Origin: an uncultured bacterium
Lineage (GTDB): Bacteria > Eisenbacteria > RBG-16-71-46 > CAIMUX01
Direction of reading: 5' to 3'
Assembly (NCBI GenBank): GCA_964636385.1
Contig: CAZWSC010000010.1
Location: forward strand, 12,159 to 76,158
DNA length: 64,000 nucleotides
Shown: positions 1,774-27,615 of the stretch, piece after piece
Layout of the letters: each line of letters opens with the position of its first letter
Numbering within the stretch: the stretch's first letter is position 1
The notes under the pieces: model-generated
What the model saw: only the letters and a program-made list of their open reading frames with translations
What the model was told of the DNA's origin: nothing
Database searches by the model: none
Program-made: the position numbers and the translations under genes

Positions 1774-2796
1774 TCAGAACCGGAACTCCAGGCTGAACCT
1801 GTGGACGGACGGCAGTGTCCTCATCTCCGAGTACGAGTAGTCGATGCGGCTTTCCCGGATCCACCCGGTCGGCACCCGCAGACCGGCTCCCGCCGACCAT
1901 AGCTCCGAGTCGAAGCGGTAGAACCACCCGGCCCTCAGGAACACCAGCGAGCGGTACCCGTATTCCGCGCCTGCATTCAGCCGCTCATGGTTGTCCGGCG
2001 GATGGGAGAACTCCGTTGCAAGGGTCAATGTCGTGACATCGCTGTTGATCACCGGAAAGGACATCCCAACCCGGAAGATCGTGGGCAACTTGGCCGGACT
2101 GTCCATGTAGTCCAGCGTGCTGCCGATGTTCTGTATCGCCATGCCTATCCTGAACGAGCGGAACCCGGTGTCGTACAGGGTGCCGAAGTCGAAGGCAACA
2201 GCGTGCGCGGTGTATCCCGCAAGATTCGAGTTCAGGTAGCTCATCCCGATGCCGGCGGAGAACTTGTCCGTCATGGAGCGGGCGTACGCGAGACCCACGG
2301 CCAGATCGCCGGCGTCGAACCAGGTCCCGTCGCCCTCGGGGTGAAAGACCGTCCTGACGCGTTCCCGGGGCATGTACATGCTCCGGGCGTTCACGGCAAA
2401 GGTCCCGGGCATCAGGTTCGTGCGGGTCACATAGGTTGCCTGAACGTACTCAATACCGGCCCACCACTGGGTGTGATTCAGGGAAAGGATGCTGCCTTCG
2501 TTCCGTGCCAGACCGGCCGGGTTCCAGAACACGGCGGTAGCGTCATCCGCAATGGCTGTAAACGCCTGGCCCATCGAGGTGGCCCTGGCACCGATCGGAA
2601 GCTTAAGAAACTGGGCCCCGATCGTCCCCACCTTGGCGAACTCCTCCGCAGCGGGCGCAATCCCTGCGGATGAAGCCACCAGGGCGGCAGCGATCAGGAC
2701 TGAGCAGAACCGTTGTGTCGTACTCGGCCCTTCGGCTCGGTGCAAAGCCCGAGAAGCGACCAGGCAGCCGCGGCGCAGGCCACGCGAAGATTCCAT
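1774..2796 (-). CDS. PorV/PorQ (UPF0164)-family outer-membrane beta-barrel
   Basis: Signature GAQFLKLPIGARATSMG...AVFWNPAGL, signal peptide, C-terminal Phe. Confidence 0.8.
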   Translation of the reverse strand: MESSRGLRRGCLVASRALHRAEGPSTTQRFCSVLIAAALVASSAGIAPAAEEFAKVGTIGAQFLKLPIGARATSMGQAFTAIADDATAVFWNPAGLARNEGSILSLNHTQWWAGIEYVQATYVTRTNLMPGTFAVNARSMYMPRERVRTVFHPEGDGTWFDAGDLAVGLAYARSMTDKFSAGIGMSYLNSNLAGYTAHAVAFDFGTLYDTGFRSFRIGMAIQNIGSTLDYMDSPAKLPTIFRVGMSFPVINSDVTTLTLATEFSHPPDNHERLNAGAEYGYRSLVFLRAGWFYRFDSELWSAGAGLRVPTGWIRESRIDYSYSEMRTLPSVHRFSLEFRF

Positions 2797-2841
2797 AGCG
2801 GGAAGCCTCCCGACCCCTTCCCGACTTCAGGGTCGGTCGCC

Positions 2842-2869
2842 ATTATACAAATGCCTGAGCGCCGGACAA
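2842..2869 (-). promoter_or_regulatory. sigma70-type promoter for the PorV-like gene
   Basis: TTGTCC-N16-TATAAT on the minus strand. Confidence 0.5.
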
Positions 2870-2916
2870 GAGCTGTCGGGCGGCGCGCACCGAAGAACTT
2901 CCGCGGCAGCTTCGGG

Positions 2917-3507
2917 CTAGAGGTTCCGGTCCCCGGGCTTCCAGTTGCACGCAGTCAGACCGCCGGTCTTGATGGCCTGAACCGTGCGGAGCGTTTCGGC
3001 GATGTTCCTGCCCGTCTCCAGGAAGTTGACCGTGGACGACAAGAGCCTGCCTTCGGGGTCGATGATGAAGGTGCCGCGAAGAGCGCATCCCTTGTCGCGC
3101 AACAGGACGCCGTACTTGCGGCTGATCTCCTTCGTCAGGTCGGAGATGAGGGGAAATCCCACCTTTCCGAGACCGTTCTCCACCCATGCCTTGTGCACGA
3201 ACTGGGAGTCTACGCTCACACCCAGGATCTGCGCGCCCTCCTTCTCGAACCCGGAGCGAAGATCCTCAAACCCACGGATCTCGGTCGGACACACGAAGGT
3301 GAAATCCAGCGGCCAGAAGAAGAGTACAACGTACCTGCCGCGATAGTCAGAAAGACTTACGGTTCCGAAAGACCCGTCAGGCATGAGGGCTTCGGCCTCG
3401 AATCCCGGCGCTTCCTGCCCGACAGCGGCCGTCTCACAGCAGCATCCATCTCCACAGCAACAACAGCAGATACAATTGGAATCATCCTTGCGCAGATCTT
3501 CCGACAT
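2917..3507 (-). CDS. ahpC: 2-Cys peroxiredoxin (AhpC/Tsa) with Cys-rich N-terminal extension
   Basis: FWPLDFTFVCPTE, GRN and resolving ACNWKPG motifs. Confidence 0.9.
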   Translation of the reverse strand: MSEDLRKDDSNCICCCCCGDGCCCETAAVGQEAPGFEAEALMPDGSFGTVSLSDYRGRYVVLFFWPLDFTFVCPTEIRGFEDLRSGFEKEGAQILGVSVDSQFVHKAWVENGLGKVGFPLISDLTKEISRKYGVLLRDKGCALRGTFIIDPEGRLLSSTVNFLETGRNIAETLRTVQAIKTGGLTACNWKPGDRNL

Positions 3508-18984: not shown

Positions 18985-21624
18985 TCACTCATCAATGATC
19001 AGCACCCGCGGCCTCTGCACACCCACACGAAGTTCGGTCGTGCCGTCGATGTACACGGTGCGCCCCACTGCCGCTGCCAGGACTGAGGCGAACTCCTCAC
19101 TGAGGGTGTGCCGGCCGAACCCTTCCAGCACAACCACCGTGAAAGGCCATGACTCGGCGAGCAGGGGTCCGAGATCCGCACCGGCCGTGATGACGCCGCT
19201 GGCCCCCGCGTCGCGAAGATTCTGCAGACCGGCAAGGTCCAGGTGCTCCACAAGGGCGACAACGCCAGCTGAAGCGCCATCCATCCCGTCGTCAGGGCGT
19301 GTCGGCAGCCCTTCTCCCTGTGGCTGGCCTGAATAACCGCCGCCCGGACCCGATCCCGGCTCCCGATACGCCAGCCGCCCGGCCGTCTCGCCGCCTGCGC
19401 CCCAGGCACCCCTGATCACGGTGCCGGACGTCTCGATGACAGCCCCGCGACCGGTTATCTCGCACACCGTACCCGGCACCCAGGCTTTCACCTCCAGCTC
19501 CTCGCGCAGAGGCTCCACCCAGATGCGGCCCTCATCCGGACGGATCTGGAGGACCCTGCCGCGGATGGGAGAGAGCGCCGTACGCCCCACCGGCGGGATA
19601 CCGGTTGCAGCCAGAACAGACCCTGCTTCCACCTCCTGCCCTTCCCCGCAACGGAGGAAAGGCGCCAGTTTTCCTGCGTCGACCTTCAGGGCGGCGGCGG
19701 CATCTACAACACAGACGTGCCGGGCCTGGGCGGGAGTCTCTCTGGCCAACACTGTTCCGTCGGCGAGTAGCCTGTCGAAGATGCCGCCTACCTGGCAGCG
19801 GAACTCCTTCGTCCTGAGCATCCCCTTCCGCCTTGCCAGCAGATCGCCCGGTGCGAACCCGTCCCCAGGCCCCATCAGAAGATGCTGCCCGGTCTCCTCC
19901 GGCCTGCAGTCGAGCACCTGCGCAACCGGCAGGAAGAACGGGCGGAGGAAAAGCCGTGTGCTCCGGGCTATAAGTGTGTCGCCTTCCACGGTGCCCCCCT
20001 TGTGGACAAGGACATCCCCGGGAATCGACAGCTCGCGCTCCAGGATGATCCTTCCGCGCCGGACCGGGTCCTCGGCAGACGCCGGAATCCTGGATGCAGC
20101 ACCCGGCACGGCTGCCCTCGCCGTCGACCCACGGTGATCCTGCGCCCTGCCCAGCCGCACTATCCCGACACGGTTGAAGAGCTCGAAGGCCAGATCAGGA
20201 TCCTGTGCGGAGAGCATCCCCAGGTGCGGAAAGATGAAGGCGCTGTCCACAGCGAGCTGCGTCCTGCGTGAAGTCTGAACGGCATCGGTCAGGATTCGGG
20301 CTGCGACGTCGCGGGGCACGTGTGAAAGTGCACCGCCGCTCCCGATGATGAGATCGTACCTGTCCGCGTTGACCACACCGGGCTCCGTGCGCGCCTCTCT
20401 CTGCCGGTCCCTCAGATGCGAGCGGATCCGAAAGGCATCCGCGCCCCTGTCATCCGACTTCCCGCCCAGCACGCGCAGGTGCGCGCGCACCGCCTCGCGC
20501 ACAGCCAGGGTTGCGATGCCCCGCTCGATTCCGGCATCAACCTCGTCCCCGGGGAGCCGCGTGGGATTGAGATACTTCTCCCCCACGCGGTTGAGCACGT
20601 CGCCTGCGTGATCCCGTGCCGGATGCGCCCCGCCCCGGGAGTCCCGCCCCTTGTCCAGCAACTCCAGCAGTGCATCCAGCCCGGCGGAGAGCAGCACGTT
20701 CAGGATGCTGTAGCTCATGCCCAGGTTCGCGCTGACCGTGCGCACGACCCTGCCTTCGTGCGCCGTGAAGACGTCGGTCGTGGCCCCTCCCACATCCACG
20801 GCGAGGATCCGCTCTCCCGTCTTCTCCGACACAAGCCCAAGTATCCTGCCGACCGCCGACGGAGTGGGCAGGAGCGGCCCGTCCACCCAGTCGCGCAACC
20901 GTTCGTAACCGGGGGCCTGCGACATTACGTGCTCCATGAAGAGCTCGTGGATCGCCTCCCGAGCGGGGCCCAGCCGCTCCTGTCCCGCCTCGGGGCGGAG
21001 GTTGTCGACCGCACGCAGCATAAAGCGGTCTTTCACAGCAGCCTCGACATAAGGCAGTGCTTTCCTGTTGCCGGCGAAGATGACAGGAAGCCGGGCACGG
21101 GGGTTCCGCTTGGGATGCAGCGAGGCTTCGTTCATGATCTCGGCAAGGAAGACCGGCCCGGAGATCGCGTCGCCATCGAATCCGCCGGCAAGCAGGACCA
21201 TGTCGGGACGGAGCCGCTCGAGATCCCGGATCTTCTGATATGGCGTGCGCCCGTCGTCCAGGGCCAGCACATCCAGCACGATCGCGCCGGCACCGAGGGC
21301 AACCCTCTCTGCGCTCTGCGAGGTGATGGAACGTACCAGGCCGGTCACGACGACGGCAAGGCCACCGCCCGCGCTGGAGGTAGAGAGGTAGGTCACTGCC
21401 GGGCGGCCGTCCCGTGTCAGGGGCGTGCCGACTTCATCCCTGAAGGCATCCAGCGCCCGTAGAACGCCGAGCGTCACGTCCTCGTCCGGCTTCTCCACCG
21501 TCGTGGCGGCCTCGTGCCGCAGACAGCGCCACCCTCCATCCCCGCCATCCCGGAGGAAGAGAACCGCCTTCGTTGTCGTGCTTCCTACGTCGGTTATGCA
21601 GATCAGGGGGTCATTGCAGCCCAT
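18985..21624 (-). CDS. GlmL/MutL-like ASKHA ATPase fused to a C-terminal barrel-sandwich-like domain
   Basis: DVGSTTTKA, SSAGGGL, LLAGGFDG, PTP, VDVGGATTDV, RTVSANLGMSYS, IIGSGG; an additional C-terminal region of roughly 350 aa. Confidence 0.75.
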   Translation of the reverse strand: MGCNDPLICITDVGSTTTKAVLFLRDGGDGGWRCLRHEAATTVEKPDEDVTLGVLRALDAFRDEVGTPLTRDGRPAVTYLSTSSAGGGLAVVVTGLVRSITSQSAERVALGAGAIVLDVLALDDGRTPYQKIRDLERLRPDMVLLAGGFDGDAISGPVFLAEIMNEASLHPKRNPRARLPVIFAGNRKALPYVEAAVKDRFMLRAVDNLRPEAGQERLGPAREAIHELFMEHVMSQAPGYERLRDWVDGPLLPTPSAVGRILGLVSEKTGERILAVDVGGATTDVFTAHEGRVVRTVSANLGMSYSILNVLLSAGLDALLELLDKGRDSRGGAHPARDHAGDVLNRVGEKYLNPTRLPGDEVDAGIERGIATLAVREAVRAHLRVLGGKSDDRGADAFRIRSHLRDRQREARTEPGVVNADRYDLIIGSGGALSHVPRDVAARILTDAVQTSRRTQLAVDSAFIFPHLGMLSAQDPDLAFELFNRVGIVRLGRAQDHRGSTARAAVPGAASRIPASAEDPVRRGRIILERELSIPGDVLVHKGGTVEGDTLIARSTRLFLRPFFLPVAQVLDCRPEETGQHLLMGPGDGFAPGDLLARRKGMLRTKEFRCQVGGIFDRLLADGTVLARETPAQARHVCVVDAAAALKVDAGKLAPFLRCGEGQEVEAGSVLAATGIPPVGRTALSPIRGRVLQIRPDEGRIWVEPLREELEVKAWVPGTVCEITGRGAVIETSGTVIRGAWGAGGETAGRLAYREPGSGPGGGYSGQPQGEGLPTRPDDGMDGASAGVVALVEHLDLAGLQNLRDAGASGVITAGADLGPLLAESWPFTVVVLEGFGRHTLSEEFASVLAAAVGRTVYIDGTTELRVGVQRPRVLIIDE

Positions 21625-22617
21625 TCAATCCATCACGCACCTGATTCCGTAGCCCTGGCCCGTGCTGCCGTGCCGGTATTGCGGGTACTGGTTGCCGCGG
21701 TTGCCGGTACGGAGAGGGGCCGTGCCTGATCCCCAGGAGCCCCCGCGTGTCACACGGCAGCACTCGAAATGCGTTGCAGGCGGATCCTCGCGCCCATCAT
21801 CCGGATCGTAGGGATAGCCTGCCCAGCCGGTGCTTGTCCACGCGTGCACATTCCCGGCCACATCGTACAGGCCATACGGGCTTGGGCTGTCGATCGTCTG
21901 GAACCCGTCGTGATTGCGGCCGTCGTAGTAGCCGACAGGCGTTGTCCAGCCATTCCCCTCATACGGGTCGCCGCTGTCCCAGTAGTTCGCCCGCTGCCCG
22001 CTGATCCCCATGCCCCAGGGATAGGTCGGGGTGTCCGCGCTGTCGCACTGCATCGGATCGCCCCACATCTCGCACCCGCCCCTGGCGGCTTTCTCCCACT
22101 CCACCTCGGTCGGGAGACGCTTCCCGGCCCAGCGGCAGTACGCATCGGCTTCCCACCACGAGACCCCATGCACCGGGAAGTGCTCGTTCCCCGGGATGCC
22201 GCCGCCGTGATACTCGTCGCTGTTCCAGTTGGCCGGCAGAGTAATGCTCTGCGCAACACGCCAGTCCCAGCCGACAGGGTTCCACCACTCAGGATTGTCG
22301 TATCCGCCGGCATCGATGAACCCGCTGTACTCGGCGTTCGTCACCGAGTACTTCCCGATCCAGAACCCATCGACCCAGACATCGTGGATGGGCGTAGCGA
22401 GAGGTTCGCCGGGTATCCCCAGCCTCACATAGCCCGGCGGGATCCAGATCATGCCGTCCGGATCCTCGCGGAATGTCAGGCTGTCGATGTTCGACACCGC
22501 GAACTCCGTGACTCTCTCACCCTCGTGAACGAGCATTCTCCACTCAGCCCGGCACGGTGTTGCAGCGATTGCAGGGCAGAGGACCAAGGCTGCCACAATC
22601 GTCATCCGAAATCTCAT
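21625..22617 (-). CDS. Secreted FGE-sulfatase/CLec-fold protein (paralog 1)
   Basis: Signal peptide; VTNAEY, PVHGVSWWEA, RLPTEVEWEKAARG, YPWG, SPYGLYDVAGNV, RGGSW. Confidence 0.88.
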   Translation of the reverse strand: MRFRMTIVAALVLCPAIAATPCRAEWRMLVHEGERVTEFAVSNIDSLTFREDPDGMIWIPPGYVRLGIPGEPLATPIHDVWVDGFWIGKYSVTNAEYSGFIDAGGYDNPEWWNPVGWDWRVAQSITLPANWNSDEYHGGGIPGNEHFPVHGVSWWEADAYCRWAGKRLPTEVEWEKAARGGCEMWGDPMQCDSADTPTYPWGMGISGQRANYWDSGDPYEGNGWTTPVGYYDGRNHDGFQTIDSPSPYGLYDVAGNVHAWTSTGWAGYPYDPDDGREDPPATHFECCRVTRGGSWGSGTAPLRTGNRGNQYPQYRHGSTGQGYGIRCVMD

Positions 22618-22762
22618 CGTCCGGTCCTCCATAAATTGGTGTCCGTCGTACAGGCCCAACCCCCTCCTCGCGGCCTTGACCTGATTGCACTCTCCAGGGC
22701 GGGATAGTCCGGTCACCCCGCCGTGTTCCCGACAGCAGGATCACCACCCACCCGCCACACAA

Positions 22763-23344
22763 TCAAGGCAGCAGGATCATCCTTCTGCTTTCCTCCACTC
22801 CCGGGGCACGCAGGGTGTAGAAGTAGACACCGCCTGCGGCCTTGTGGCCGGCATCATCCAGGCCGTCCCAGTGCACGGTCTGCCGGCCTGCTGAGCGCTC
22901 GCCGCCCGCCAGTGTCCGCACCAGCCGGCCATCGGGGCTGTAGATTGCGAGTTCGGCTGCGCCGGCCTGCGGCAGGTCGAACGCGATCTGAGTATCGGAC
23001 GAAAACGGGTTCGGCTGGTTCTGGAAGAGTCGGATCGCCTTCAGCGCCTGCGCCGTGGCCTCCGGCGTCGGAGCGCTCGATACTTCCATGATGAAGTCAA
23101 TCCTCACGATCTCGTCTGTAGGGTAGCTGTCGGAACCTGTGGTCGTCACGACGATCACCGCGTCATCGTCGAACAGGACCTGCTCGATGTTGCCTACCGC
23201 GTAGACCGCGCCCGGGCCCTCGGTCAGCCTGATGACCAGGGCGGGCTCATCTGCATTCGCTGCCTGCGCCGCGGCCAGGCAGGCGAGTAGGGCAGAGGCT
23301 GCCCACAATGGGATCCGGTTCCTGCAAGACTGTCCTGTTCTCAT
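22763..23344 (-). CDS. Small secreted protein with FlgD-Ig/T9SS-type C-terminal sorting domain
   Basis: Signal peptide; LFQNQPNPF, IYSPDGRLVRTL, WDG.D..G...GVYFY. Confidence 0.85.
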   Translation of the reverse strand: MRTGQSCRNRIPLWAASALLACLAAAQAANADEPALVIRLTEGPGAVYAVGNIEQVLFDDDAVIVVTTTGSDSYPTDEIVRIDFIMEVSSAPTPEATAQALKAIRLFQNQPNPFSSDTQIAFDLPQAGAAELAIYSPDGRLVRTLAGGERSAGRQTVHWDGLDDAGHKAAGGVYFYTLRAPGVEESRRMILLP

Positions 23345-23392
23345 TTTCGCCTCCATGTTGATCCTGATCCGCCTGCTCGGGACAAGGGGCCA

Positions 23393-24334
23393 TCAGTTTC
23401 TCGCACAACGAAACCCGTATGCGGGGTGTCGTTCGTGCGGGTGGCCGCTGTCGCGGTGGGCGCAGCGGAGGTTGTGCGTGGCACTGCCCCACGAGCCGCC
23501 GCGAAACACCCGGCAGCACTCGTTGGGGGTTATCGGCGGATTCTCCCGGCCGTCGTCCGGGTCATAGGGGTAGCTCGCGTACTTCGTGCTGCACCACTCC
23601 CAGACATTCCCGGCCAGATCGTAGAGCCCGTATGGGCCCGGGCTGTCGATCGTCTGGTAGCCGTCGTGATTGCTGCCGTCGTAGTATCCGACAGGCGTTG
23701 TCCAGCCGTTGTTCTGATACGGGTCGCCACTCTGCCAGTAGTTCGCCCGTGGCCCGCTGATCCCCTCGCCCCAGGGGTAGGTCGGGGTGTTCGGAGAGGG
23801 CCCCCTGGCAGCCTTCTCCCACTCGGCCTCGGTGGGCAACCGCGTCCCTGCCCAGCGGCACCAGGCGTCCGCTTCCCACCAGGAGACGCCGTTCACCGGG
23901 AAGCCCTCGTTCCCGGGGATCCCGCCACCGTGATACTGATTGCTGTTCCAGTTCTCCGGCAGCGTGATGTTGCCGGCCACCCGCCAGTCCCAGCCGACCG
24001 GGTTCCACCATGCAGGGTTGCTGTATCCACCGGCGTCGATGAACTCCCTGTACTCCCCGTTCGTCACCTCGTACTTGCCGATCCAGAAGCCGTCAACCCA
24101 CACATCGTGGACCGGCTCGGCGATCCCGGACTGCCCCAGCCGCACTTCGCCGGCCGGGATCCAGATCATGTTCCTGGGAGTTTCCTGGAACGTCAGGCTG
24201 TCGATCTCTGATGCCGTGAACTCGGAGTAGGTATCACCCCTGTGAACTCTGACCCTCCACTCGGTGTCGTCTGCCGCGGCAGTGAAGGCCAACAGCGCAA
24301 GAGGTGCAGCAGCCATCAGAACCAATCTACTCAT
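23393..24334 (-). CDS. Secreted FGE-sulfatase/CLec-fold protein (paralog 2)
   Basis: Signal peptide; KYEVTNGEY, RLPTEAEWEKAARG, GNVWEW, RGGSW...GFRC. Confidence 0.9.
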   Translation of the reverse strand: MSRLVLMAAAPLALLAFTAAADDTEWRVRVHRGDTYSEFTASEIDSLTFQETPRNMIWIPAGEVRLGQSGIAEPVHDVWVDGFWIGKYEVTNGEYREFIDAGGYSNPAWWNPVGWDWRVAGNITLPENWNSNQYHGGGIPGNEGFPVNGVSWWEADAWCRWAGTRLPTEAEWEKAARGPSPNTPTYPWGEGISGPRANYWQSGDPYQNNGWTTPVGYYDGSNHDGYQTIDSPGPYGLYDLAGNVWEWCSTKYASYPYDPDDGRENPPITPNECCRVFRGGSWGSATHNLRCAHRDSGHPHERHPAYGFRCARN

Positions 24335-24507: not shown

Positions 24508-25704
24508 CTACCCGCGCTCCAGAAGCTCCAACCGGTGGTAGTCGAAGACCTTCCCGCCGCGAAGCACGTGGTCCAGGAAGAGGGCCAGCTTCCCGTTCTG
24601 CAGTAGATCCGCAAGCCCGCCATCCTCGGCCAGAAAGAGGAGCTTCGACTCCAGGTAGGCCTGGTGGAGATTGCGCCGTCGGTTGAACACCTTCTTCTCC
24701 CCCAGCAGCCACTCGTCGTAGAGGGATGCAGCGGCCTCCAGCCGGCGCACCGGCTTGCCCGCCCTCCTGTATAACTGCGCCATGTGGCTCAACAGGACGT
24801 GCACCTCGTCGTACCGGGGAAGACGGCCGCGATAGACGCGGTGCGGGAGGAGGTTGTCCAGCCCAGCCTCGCGGAAGACGGCTCTGGCCCGGCGGTCGAG
24901 TTCGCACGAGTATGCGGCAACGGGCGCGCCGGAGTCGCGGTTCTCCGAATAGAGATTCGTGTACAAAGGGACCAGATCCGGCCTGCAGCGCTTCAGCGTC
25001 TCGAAGAAGAACCCCTTCTGGCGCCCCGGCCGCAGTGTCAAACCGCCGAACATGACCACGTCCACGCCGATCGCAGAGAGGCGCTGCGCCATGGCTGCAA
25101 GATCGGCAGCCGAATCGGAGATCCCGGGGAGTATCGGCATTACCACCGCACCGGTTACACATCCCAGCCTGCGGAACTCCGCCAGTATCTGCAGGCGCTC
25201 CTCCACGGCAGCGGCGCGGGGTTCGAACTCACGGCGCACATCCTCGTCGAGTGTCTGAATCGAGAGCATGAGTATGAACCCGGCGCGCTCGTGAACCTCC
25301 TTCCAGACGGGAGCGTCGCGGAGTACGAGGCCGGACTTGGTCAGCAGCGAGACCGGCATCGAGTGCTCCGCGAGGATCCGGGCCGAGCGGCCTGTCAGGT
25401 TGAACTCCGCCTCGCAGGGCTGATAGCAGTCGCTAACCCCGGAGCCCAGGCGCACGATCCCCTTTTCGCGCAGGCGGGACAGCTCCTTTTTAAGGACCTC
25501 GGGGGCGTTCGTCCGGACAACGATGTCGCGCTCGAAGTCGCCCTCCACCCAGTAGCGTTCCGCCCGGCCGTCGCAGTAGGAGCAGCCGTGGGCGCAGGCC
25601 TGGTATGGCGAGTAGCTGTACTTGCCGACGAAGTACGAGTCGCACAGGTCGCGCCTGCGAAGGACCGCCTTGACGTCGCGCTGGTGGAAGCTCGTCCCGT
25701 CCAC
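24508..25704 (-). CDS. Radical SAM protein (SplB/Rv2578c-like)
   Basis: SPYQACAHGCSYC (CxxxCxxC), SDCYQP, LTKS, FEP, PILPGISD. Confidence 0.85.
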   Translation of the reverse strand: MDGTSFHQRDVKAVLRRRDLCDSYFVGKYSYSPYQACAHGCSYCDGRAERYWVEGDFERDIVVRTNAPEVLKKELSRLREKGIVRLGSGVSDCYQPCEAEFNLTGRSARILAEHSMPVSLLTKSGLVLRDAPVWKEVHERAGFILMLSIQTLDEDVRREFEPRAAAVEERLQILAEFRRLGCVTGAVVMPILPGISDSAADLAAMAQRLSAIGVDVVMFGGLTLRPGRQKGFFFETLKRCRPDLVPLYTNLYSENRDSGAPVAAYSCELDRRARAVFREAGLDNLLPHRVYRGRLPRYDEVHVLLSHMAQLYRRAGKPVRRLEAAASLYDEWLLGEKKVFNRRRNLHQAYLESKLLFLAEDGGLADLLQNGKLALFLDHVLRGGKVFDYHRLELLERG

Positions 25705-25712
25705 GGCAGCGA

Positions 25713-27494
25713 TCAGCGCAGGACGATCATGGGGACCGTGCCGGTCGCATCCACTGTGCGGAGGCGGACCCAGTAGACCCCGGTGGTCAGCCGCTCGGTG
25801 CCCCTCAGCGCGAGCCGGTCCCAGGTCGAGCCCGAGGAGGGGAAGAGCCCGCCCATCAGGCGACGTCCCGTAACGTCGACGACATCCCAGGCCACCGGGT
25901 CTCCCATCCCGGGCGGAGATTCCCAGAGGATGTCCCGGTCGGACATGCCCGGATTCGGGGCCAGGCGGAAGCGAAGAGGCTCGCCCCGAACGGTACCGAG
26001 GCCTATCTCCTCGACTGAAGCGATGGGCGGCGATGCCTCAACGGTCCTCCTGCTCCACCTTGTGAGTGTCGCGAAGGAGCCCTCCATCGCATCCTCGACT
26101 CCGCCGGACGGATCGGCGATCCAGAGATCCCAGAGGAGCCGGTCCGCATGAGGGGTGATCCCCGGATCCAGCAGTCCGCCCGGAGCGGCCGGATCCAGGA
26201 TCGGCAGGCGGAAGCCATGGCCGGCGGCTGGAGCCCAGACCTCCCAGAGGGTGCGGCCGGCACGGTGGTCCTCGGGCTGAAGCCTGAATGTCGAAACAGC
26301 CCAGGTCGGATCTGCGGCTGCCCCCCCTGCGGTGACGTCGCCCCATGCGAACTCGTCGCCGAACTGAAGGACGTCGGGGATCCTGTACAAGCTGTCGAGT
26401 CTCCTGGAGGCCGGCAGGGTCAGGGGAGTGCGGTCGACAATCCCCGCCTGGAACAGGCGTGCGGGCGAGCTGTCGGAGTAGTAGCCGGCGACGTAGGGCA
26501 CGGCATCGGCAAGGTCACCCGACGGGTTCAGGCCGGCCAGCACAAGGGACCCGAGCGTATCCGCGGATGCCGTCTTTGCGTCGAAGAAGAGCGAGCGGAC
26601 AGCGCCGTCCCCGGGGAGATCCGCAACCGAGGTGAAGAAGACCTCGGATCCCGGGGGGGCTCCGGGCATCGAGACCTCGAGCCCGGCGACCAGCGGGATG
26701 TCGGCGCGGACCATGAGCTCGGTATCGCCCTGCACGTGCACACCGCGCCTGACCCCTGCGCTCCGCATGGTCATGGCGTCAAGCGAGATCCCCCCGAGGG
26801 CGAGGGAGGAGAGCGGCACGCGCCCGGATGCCACGAACACGTCGCAGATCCCGCCTGTCGGAATGAAGAAACGGTACTGCGGCCTGGAGAAACGCATGAA
26901 CATGTACTCGGTCTGACCCGGGATCACGATGTTGCCCGGCAGGATCGATGGTCCGGCCAGCGGCAGGTAGACGGTGTCGGAAGGAACCTCGAAGGTCAGC
27001 TCACGGCCGAAGAGGAGGGATGACAGCGACACCGTCGGGTAGACGATCCCGACGTCGATGTAGCCGTCGTAGCTGCGGGCCTCGATCCCGTCCACCTGCC
27101 CCCTCACCTCCGCTCTCTGCCCGGGCAGACCGGCGGACGGCGCATCAGCGTGCAGCCGCAGTGTGATCGACCCCTCGGCGGCTTCGATCACGCTTAGGAG
27201 GGAGTACCCCCCGGCCCCGGCAGTCACGGTCTGATGGCCTACGAGGAAGGGGCTGTCGAAGACGGCCTTCCCATCGCCATCGCTCCAGGTCCAGTTCCCG
27301 ACGAACGGATCCCCGGGACCTGGACCGACCTGCACATACGCACCGGTCACGGGCGCCCCGGTTCGGGAATCCAGCACCGTTATCTCCAGCGTATCCGAAT
27401 GCGCGGGCGTAAAGGCAAGAGTGGAGAGCATTGCAGGCGCGAAAGCGGGGGCAAGTCGCAGGATCCGCATCCCCGAATGCAGCCAGTGGCGCAT
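25713..27494 (-). CDS. Secreted protein with degenerate T9SS-type C-terminal domain
   Basis: Signal peptide, carboxypeptidase-regulatory-like N-domain, C-terminal APNP...DVTGRR...GVYWVRL. Confidence 0.7.
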   Translation of the reverse strand: MRHWLHSGMRILRLAPAFAPAMLSTLAFTPAHSDTLEITVLDSRTGAPVTGAYVQVGPGPGDPFVGNWTWSDGDGKAVFDSPFLVGHQTVTAGAGGYSLLSVIEAAEGSITLRLHADAPSAGLPGQRAEVRGQVDGIEARSYDGYIDVGIVYPTVSLSSLLFGRELTFEVPSDTVYLPLAGPSILPGNIVIPGQTEYMFMRFSRPQYRFFIPTGGICDVFVASGRVPLSSLALGGISLDAMTMRSAGVRRGVHVQGDTELMVRADIPLVAGLEVSMPGAPPGSEVFFTSVADLPGDGAVRSLFFDAKTASADTLGSLVLAGLNPSGDLADAVPYVAGYYSDSSPARLFQAGIVDRTPLTLPASRRLDSLYRIPDVLQFGDEFAWGDVTAGGAAADPTWAVSTFRLQPEDHRAGRTLWEVWAPAAGHGFRLPILDPAAPGGLLDPGITPHADRLLWDLWIADPSGGVEDAMEGSFATLTRWSRRTVEASPPIASVEEIGLGTVRGEPLRFRLAPNPGMSDRDILWESPPGMGDPVAWDVVDVTGRRLMGGLFPSSGSTWDRLALRGTERLTTGVYWVRLRTVDATGTVPMIVLR

Positions 27495-27560
27495 CGTATG
27501 CCCTCCGGAGAAGATGCTCATTCCGATCTGCGTCCGCCGGGCTTCGTGCAGCATCGATCC

Positions 27561-27576
27561 CGCAAGTAGAGTTCCG
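27561..27576 (-). promoter_or_regulatory. sigma54-like promoter
   Basis: CGGAACTCTACTTGCG (GG-N8-TTGC) about 70 nt upstream of the ATG. Confidence 0.45.
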
Positions 27577-27615
27577 AACATGAAGCACTCTGCCGTAACC
27601 GCAGCCGCCCGCGCA

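Follow-up and report, generated by a model that had tools for sequence, protein, structure and literature searches.

What role could a small gene that encodes little more than a protein-sorting domain play between two genes for secreted proteins that have none? The question is raised by a 64,000-nucleotide stretch of DNA from an uncultured bacterium of the Candidatus Eisenbacteria (contig CAZWSC010000010.1, positions 12,159 to 76,158; hereafter the window), where translation of the open reading frames (ORFs) in 21625-24334 gives three genes on the minus strand: FGE2, the adaptor and FGE1. Behind their signal peptides, FGE1 and FGE2 carry a single short module and then an FGE-sulfatase head; the adaptor joins two similar modules to a type IX secretion system (T9SS) C-terminal domain (CTD). 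Synteny and phyletic pattern give good support to a functional coupling of the adaptor with module-bearing genes. The simplest way to explain it would be direct binding, and export in trans is a further step beyond that. We give a little less than even confidence to the reading that module-bearing proteins are bound through the module by the adaptor and served in trans by its CTD.

The coupling was assessed by whole-genome profile searches for the adaptor N-domain and for the cargo module (the single module of the CTD-less proteins) in 151 genomes of the phylum, which are related and hence non-independent, and no P-value is attached to the counts. Searches with the adaptor N-domain profile yielded 32 matches, spread over 15 of the 151 genomes, and those with the cargo-module profile 52 matches in 16; each of the 15 adaptor genomes also possesses the module, both are missing from 135 genomes, and in one (G133) a weak match to the module stands alone. 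For 28 of the 32 adaptor genes, a module match lies on the same strand 0.5-0.8 kb downstream, in the next gene. Three of the four exceptions stand at contig ends, where 1, 150 and 372 nucleotides of room are left, and the fourth (G011:C100) is a true orphan adaptor with unrelated membrane-protein genes on both sides. No genome among the 15 has fewer modules than adaptors (module-to-adaptor ratios include 7:2, 9:6, 6:3 and 3:1). The distribution is patchy within families (2/9 genomes in f1, 1/5 in f3 and 9/12 in f4) but always joint. The earlier note on this DNA had named, as a check, the co-occurrence of genes with two modules and a CTD with single-module genes, and such co-occurrence is strongly supported by the same 15 of 151 genomes and by 28 of 32 loci.

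At the adaptor loci that were fetched, an FGE-domain gene almost always comes next on the same strand, often overlapping the adaptor stop codon, and the cargos encoded there have a signal peptide followed by the strongly conserved motif EW(K/R)MRVH.G....F.V..IDSLTF. A single adaptor can be followed by tandem cargos, three in locus L024 and two each in L007 and L036. In the genome to which the window belongs (G000), a second copy of the adaptor is truncated where contig C79 ends, and a third module-bearing FGE protein is found unlinked on contig C48, beside a divergent amylase-like gene. The same contig holds ORF O12080 (G000:C48, about 2666-3090, plus strand; E 0.021), in which the first two-thirds of a cargo module (TEWRIRIHDGGEISEFAV...) are followed by unrelated sequence, possibly a decayed cargo gene.

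The heads behind adaptors are not confined to the FGE fold alone. Directly behind the adaptor, L021 encodes a module with a Cys-rich CPL1-like head and L027 a module with a 638-residue head of no known family; in L034, the module is followed by a Cys-rich stretch and then an FGE domain. Because module proteins with CPL1-like and no-family heads sit directly behind adaptors, it is the module and not the FGE fold that tracks the adaptor, and the interchangeability of heads suggested in the earlier note finds direct examples in L021 and L027. One apparent natural fusion of adaptor and cargo was rejected: in L025 (764-2762), an adaptor-like gene runs normally into its CTD and is then joined out of frame to the Cys-rich and FGE part of a cargo, which reflects either a deletion that joined two genes or an assembly chimera.

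We confirmed letter for letter all four modules quoted in the earlier note. The shared pattern, written as a regular expression and applied to the 29,616 ORFs of the 3.2-Mb genome, recovered the four modules and 10 unrelated strings. In profile-profile comparisons with hhalign, the cargo module matched adaptor module 1 at P 1.4e-5 (probability 80%) and adaptor module 2 at P 9.7e-5 (58%), and the two adaptor modules matched each other at P 7.8e-8 (94.5%). In none of the three comparisons did any of 150 column shuffles attain the observed score, and a null set of 26 natural beta-rich segments from the same proteins reached best scores of 8-13, against 18-28 observed. A profile built from the repeats of other organisms, whose member proteins were found with no role for the adaptor sequences, matched both adaptor modules, with P-values of 2.9e-7 for module 1 and 2.1e-6 for module 2. 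The pattern shared by the modules is real at the level of sequence profiles, and the modules are probably distant homologues, with the two adaptor copies forming a divergent subtype.

The adaptor belongs to a coherent family with 211 relatives at E<=1e-3. Among the 120 matches listed, nearly all are 181-259 residues long (typically about 193-194) with 50-60% identity, and those that are named belong to Candidatus Eisenbacteria; the alignment shows that both modules, the linker and the CTD are all kept. Its signal peptide, as read from the sequence, has a basic n-region, a hydrophobic run and AQAANA ahead of D36, and AlphaFold2 (AF2) places a helix at residues 15-29 of this region. The AF2 model built from the family alignment has a mean predicted local distance difference test (pLDDT) score of 76.8. 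In it, the N-domain consists of six strands (39-44, 50-53, 57-63, 66-71, 75-79 and 83-89; block pLDDT 84-91), three from each module, followed by a helix at 98-112 and then by the CTD sandwich. The CTD matches PF13860 (FlgD Ig-like) at 1.3e-11 and the T9SS type A model TIGR04183 at 24.1 bits (cut-off 23). In a fold search, the modelled CTD resembled FlgD (Z 9.1), the CTD of PorU (Z 8.8, root-mean-square deviation 2.3 over 79 aligned residues), the CTD of PorZ (Z 7.1) and the translocon-bound CTDs of NucA and RemA (Z 6.8 for 8glk_D and 6.7 for 8gl6_D). Foldseek and VIA searches with the adaptor model returned matches to the CTD only and barely covered the N-domain, and an ESM Atlas search with residues 36-96 gave no usable match.

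To judge from its sequence, the adaptor would thus qualify as a T9SS substrate on account of both its Sec signal peptide and its type A CTD. Of the matching secretion apparatus, the host has SprA at 493.5 bits (cut-off 200), PorU at 474.5 bits (cut-off 420) and about 70 ORFs with type A CTDs above the cut-off. The window itself contains a 340-residue PorV-like ORF (1774-2796, minus strand), which scores 81.5 bits (C10:14163-14810), below the cut-off of 250. Our search of the accessible literature found no publications on type IX secretion in Eisenbacteria.

The proteins that would need such a service are the FGE-fold heads. They are homologous to solved FGE (1.9e-45), to PorK (4e-35) and to Treponema TvpA (9.5e-35), and also to EgtB and PvdO. 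A catalytic Cys pair is the defining feature of true FGE. In an alignment with SUMF1, the stretch after RGGSW in the heads corresponds to the catalytic-cysteine region of FGE; no conserved Cys pair follows GGS, the alignment has no conserved Cys column, and FGE1 reads RGGSWGSGTAPLRTGNR, which is free of Cys. An identity as a true FGE enzyme was rejected on this ground, despite the presence of the PF03781 fold. Mean pairwise identity among paralogues is 0.32 in the post-RGGSW stretch, 0.54 in the module and 0.60 in the FGE core. Because the post-RGGSW stretch is the most variable and has no conserved Cys, we read the heads as putative non-catalytic binding domains with diversified C-terminal loops. 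A TvpA-like target of a diversity-generating retroelement (DGR) was also rejected: no RVT_1 match was found in the 99.75%-complete genome, and no template repeat was detected, as blastn with both 3' ends returned paralogous FGE genes only. PorK/GldK identity was likewise rejected, with scores of 68.1 and 102.4 bits against a TIGR03525 cut-off of 350 and no canonical lipobox.

The position of these heads could explain why the CTD is encoded elsewhere. All 33 sequences of cargo alignment A2 end with the FGE domain and have no CTD, and none of the 22 FGE-domain ORFs of genome G000 has one; in nearly all of these 22 the domain lies at the extreme C-terminus, in some behind N-terminal regions of 500-1000 residues. 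A CTD on such a head would sit upon its variable loops, and hence an N-terminal tag and a separately supplied CTD may have been favoured.

We propose a two-part system, conserved in one order of Candidatus Eisenbacteria. The first part would be a small T9SS substrate made up of a Sec signal peptide, a six-stranded two-module N-domain, a short helix and a type A CTD; the second would be one to three Sec-exported proteins, or more elsewhere in the genome, each with a single module directly behind the signal peptide, then a binding-type head, in most cases a non-catalytic FGE-fold domain with hypervariable C-terminal loops, and no CTD. In the periplasm, the single module would dock onto the adaptor N-domain by beta-sheet augmentation, and the adaptor CTD would bring the complex to the SprA translocon. 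After processing by PorU, the head would be displayed on the cell surface or released from it. In its general form, in which the adaptor acts as a T9SS sorting domain in trans that captures any one-module periplasmic protein, carries it through SprA and tethers it to the surface, we consider the proposal plausible without counting it as probable.

Several observations weigh against this proposal. The AF2 model closes the two adaptor modules into a self-contained six-stranded domain with no obvious missing strand. Over 30 distinct pairs, distances among adaptor N-domains and distances among their neighbouring modules correlate at r 0.12, and at a partial Mantel r of 0.03 when the CTD is taken into account, a value attained by 702 of 2000 permutations; this missing covariation is compatible with promiscuous binding or with no binding. 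At E<=10, HMMER profiles of the two adaptor modules (30 homologues, filters off) fail to match one another or the FGE modules, and the hidden Markov model (HMM) of the cargo module attains an adaptor at E 0.19 at best. Because HMMER fails to connect them, cargo and adaptor modules would be distant subtypes, and the relatedness that the earlier note had implied stands by profile-profile comparison, with its shuffled and natural-segment nulls, and not by HMMER. The module is also found where the adaptor is not, on many secreted proteins of other lineages that bear it once or as two or three tandem copies, and genome G133 encodes a single-module protein and has no adaptor at E<=1e-5. One module protein, encoded directly behind the adaptor in L023 (5577-8777), has its own CTD: its 1037 residues comprise the module, three FGE-sulfatase domains and a FlgD_ig CTD. 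On the side of the secretion apparatus, the three PorV-like ORFs of the host all fall under the 250-bit cut-off (best 101.9), and the GldL and GldM models match nothing in the host; because the control genomes were equally silent, the latter result is not evidence of absence. Finally, no T9SS cargo exported in trans was found in the available text of the literature searched (PMC9251779, PMC10994853, PMC6247017 and PMC9936825), a body from which subscription journals mostly fall outside.

Two of these cases have features of their own. The 1037-residue protein of L023 is followed by a normal module-FGE gene, and the first 40 mature residues of the two products are identical. The G133 protein (L093; G133:C78, 1140-2333, minus strand) consists of a single module and a head that is fn3-like and lamin-tail-like.

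A complex prediction for mature FGE1 with adaptor residues 36-106 gave no answer (score 0.02, mark 0.32), which counts neither for nor against binding. We infer the physical contact, its strand-pairing nature and the export in trans; with the closed adaptor domain and the lack of adaptor-module covariation, the co-assembly by strand complementation and export in trans that the earlier note had put forward stay at the level of inference.

The module itself has a far wider distribution than the adaptor. We searched the cargo-module profile against 1.84 billion representative proteins at E<=1e-3 and obtained 65 matches, of which 3 were false positives and 62 true. These carry one module (44), two (9) or three (9), never more, and the signal peptide leads straight into the first, which starts near residue 20-26. 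A maximum of three would suit a three-module domain split into two on the adaptor and one on the cargo, but this idea is speculative, as the cargo and adaptor modules do not correspond to particular positions (M1, M2 or M3) in three-module proteins. The repeat unit is about 25 residues long and ends in I-D/E-x-[LIVM]-x-F. The heads are FGE-sulfatase domains (the commonest), LVIVD propellers, Laminin_G_3, fn3, Cthe_2159, SASA esterase, Fib_succ_major and Lcl_C. One of the proteins comes from a metagenome-assembled genome (MAG) of the Fibrobacteria, and one from another lineage (P0182) has nothing but modules and proline-rich linkers in front of a T9SS CTD (TIGR04183, 37.5 bits), which counts in favour of our proposal. 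A locus scan for the LVIVD single-module protein P0129 returned 80 loci with ordinary LVIVD proteins and neither module nor adaptor. Applied to genome G000, the generic repeat profile matches the three cargo modules (E 1e-4 to 6e-4) and nothing else. Cargo modules are members of this wider repeat family, and adaptor modules are members at the profile-profile level only.

No Pfam-A or NCBIfam model covers the module in scans of the locus and wider-repeat proteins, which agrees with the remark in the earlier note that it knew no described name for the arrangement. By its sequence distribution, the module is an unnamed repeat of general occurrence at the N-terminus of secreted proteins. The earlier note was right to see it in the adaptor and the FGE pair; it is not peculiar to them, being a widespread repeat of one to three copies that the note had missed. 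The feature particular to this Eisenbacteria order is that two modules with a CTD stand on one protein and single modules on others that lack a CTD.

The breadth of the family lends itself to another account of the locus, in which adaptor and cargo modules both bind the same envelope component, such as a glycan, peptidoglycan or an outer-membrane protein, and not each other; the adaptor could then be a spacer, a competitor or an anchor. A common third partner of this kind is consistent with a general repeat on unrelated heads (Cthe_2159, SASA, Fib_succ_major, Laminin_G_3, LVIVD and FGE), with the presence of the module in lineages that lack the adaptor and in at least one such genome, with the absence of pair-specific covariation and with the self-contained adaptor N-domain that the model predicts. 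We consider it unlikely, as it leaves unexplained both the position of a cargo gene directly after the adaptor (28/32) and the fact that the single-module CTD-less proteins of the order never occur without the adaptor (15/15 genomes).

In a second alternative, only the adaptor passes through the T9SS, to be anchored at the cell surface, and the cargos leave the periplasm by some other route and dock outside, in the manner of cohesin and dockerin. The linkage and co-occurrence data apply to extracellular docking just as they do to export in trans, the ratio of one adaptor to many cargos suits a scaffold, and the modelled adaptor N-domain would fold alone, as expected of a receptor. The other route is the difficulty. 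The cargos show no export signal beyond the Sec signal peptide, and a type II secretion system is represented only by secretin-like sequences, three secretin-family ORFs in the host that all fall under the GspD cut-off, even if these leave room for another passage through the outer membrane; the binding itself would moreover be as inferential as in our proposal. We regard this alternative with considerable doubt.

A third possibility dispenses with the adaptor as a partner and treats the module as a self-association tag: a single module would be unable to fold alone, and cargos would dimerize to rebuild the six-stranded unit, leaving the adaptor as a separate small surface protein or as a ligand or substrate of the FGE-fold heads. 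The structural models give this idea some footing, in that the two modules form one compact domain in the adaptor and that the module of FGE1, in the AF2 monomer of the mature protein, is modelled with confidence as a hairpin (residues 1-20, pLDDT 85-89) in which the last strand has no partner; this FGE1 model is otherwise poor, with a mean pLDDT of 41.2. Proteins with two tandem modules exist (9 of the 62 true matches). Self-association gives no reason for the synteny and phyletic coupling of adaptor and cargo, and an enzyme-substrate relation is unlikely because the heads lack the catalytic Cys pair that true FGE has; we consider this possibility improbable. That there is no functional link at all, the modules being a chance beta-hairpin pattern in an incidental gene order, is hardly credible even with modules as short as about 25 residues that HMMER fails to connect, and is close to refuted by the synteny and co-occurrence census (28/32 loci; joint in 150/151 genomes), with profile-profile scores far above the shuffled and natural-segment nulls.

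The coordinates of the three genes and their parts are collected in Table 1. FGE2 probably starts at ORF residue M40, whose position of 24334 coincides with the end of the interval delimited in the earlier note. The adaptor ORF spans 22763-23356, and its database twin P0001 begins at M5 (23344). The FGE1 ORF spans 21625-22716 with a likely start at M34 (22617), and its sequence runs from MRFRMTIVAALVLCPAIAATPCRA through the module to the PF03781 domain. Matches to PF03781 in the Pfam scan have E-values of 2.3e-55 for FGE2 (ORF residues 93-351) and 1.8e-46 for FGE1. The cargo-module HMM matches FGE2 at 4.1e-9 and FGE1 at 2.2e-14, and profile A4 matches the FGE2 module at 1.2e-14. In both proteins, the module begins at, or no more than three residues from, the likely cleavage site, the FGE domain reaches the C-terminal residues and there is no CTD. 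A canonical lipobox is absent from both signal peptides as read from the sequence.

Table 1. Features of the adaptor locus, in window coordinates
Feature	Position	Strand	Description and basis
FGE2	23393-24334	-	CTD-less secreted protein of FGE/C-type lectin (CLec) fold, upstream gene; ORF, translation
FGE2 signal peptide	24334-24263	-	Predicted, read from sequence
FGE2 module	24262-24188	-	Single N-terminal module (EWRVRVHRG...IDSLTF)
FGE2 FGE-sulfatase domain	about 24175-23399	-	PF03781
Adaptor	22763-23344	-	193 residues; signal peptide, two modules and T9SS type A CTD
Adaptor signal peptide	23344-23252	-	Predicted, read from sequence
Adaptor N-domain	23251-23081	-	Residues 36-92; holds both modules
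Adaptor module 1	23239-23171	-	
Adaptor module 2	23158-23093	-	
Adaptor helical linker		-	Between N-domain and CTD
Adaptor T9SS type A CTD	about 23038-22766	-	
FGE1	21625-22617	-	CTD-less secreted protein of FGE/CLec fold, directly downstream of adaptor
FGE1 signal peptide	22617-22546	-	Predicted, read from sequence
FGE1 module	22545-22471	-	Single N-terminal module (EWRMLVHEG...IDSLTF)
FGE1 FGE-sulfatase domain	about 22458-21634	-	PF03781

The neighbouring genes of the window are also on the minus strand. An ORF of 879 residues (18985-21624) adjoins the FGE1 stop with zero gap; its N-terminal half belongs to the MutL/GlmL family (PF13941, 9.3e-94) and is followed by about 400 residues without a family match. 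The region upstream of FGE2 holds an Rv2578c-like radical SAM gene (24508-25704) and, beyond it, a gene for a secreted-looking protein of 622 residues (25713-27581) with a weak CarboxypepD_reg match and a C-terminus that is weakly CTD-like, below threshold.

In the accessible portions of the T9SS literature searched, each cargo carries its own CTD; here, the CTD and its apparent passengers are on different polypeptides, and the sorting domain and the passengers are linked by the shared short module, gene order and co-occurrence only. If the proposal of export in trans is true, the T9SS would gain its first hitchhiker mechanism, and the rule for T9SS substrates would be extended. The proposal would explain how heads whose C-terminus forms the binding site arrive at the surface, and would supply the cell with diversified lectin-like heads as a plug-in set. 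It could also provide a small two-part tag for the export and display of CTD-less proteins in T9SS hosts. Whatever the mechanism, an unnamed and widespread N-terminal beta-repeat is defined, in Eisenbacteria and at least Fibrobacteria, which deserves a family model. The clear SprA and PorU matches outside Bacteroidota, together with GldL and GldM models that are silent here and in the controls, bear on the energy source of T9SS-like systems.

Known systems share individual features with this arrangement. A Sec signal peptide and an Ig-like sandwich at the C-terminus are features that the adaptor shares with T9SS type A substrates, among them RgpB, PorU and PorZ and the proteins that bear the NucA and RemA CTDs. 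According to the available text of PMC10994853, type A CTDs bind PorV loops inside SprA and exit CTD-first. The adaptor differs from these substrates in that its own passenger is a mere 57-residue two-module domain with no enzymatic or adhesin part, whereas the apparent passengers are separately encoded and CTD-less. In twin-arginine (Tat) 'hitchhiker' and peroxisomal 'piggyback' transport, a folded partner without a signal is carried by one that bears it (PMC9251779, as far as its text was available), and the same would hold here if our proposal is correct. No such T9SS mechanism is mentioned in the available part of that source (PMC9251779), and the machine, the compartment and the signal are all different from those of the proposed T9SS case. 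The heads share their fold with the CLec-fold proteins FGE, PorK and TvpA, but have no conserved catalytic Cys pair, no DGR in this genome, GldK scores below the cut-off and no lipobox.

Substrates with type B CTDs offer a further parallel within the T9SS, with a cargo and a dedicated partner that act as a pair. The carriers of type B substrates are PorP/SprF-like and often encoded beside the cargo. In that case, the partner is an outer-membrane carrier and the CTD is on the cargo, whereas here the CTD is on the small partner and there is none on the large proteins. In the cohesin-dockerin system of the cellulosome, a small recognition module is found on varied heads, and a scaffold with complementary modules and a surface anchor holds many cargos. 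No cohesin or dockerin family was found in Pfam scans of the locus proteins and cargos; the two systems have no sequence relation, and here the modules on both sides are of one kind. In a diderm host such as this, the cargo must still cross the outer membrane. By analogy, the adaptor could correspond to the cellulosomal scaffold, one serving many cargos.

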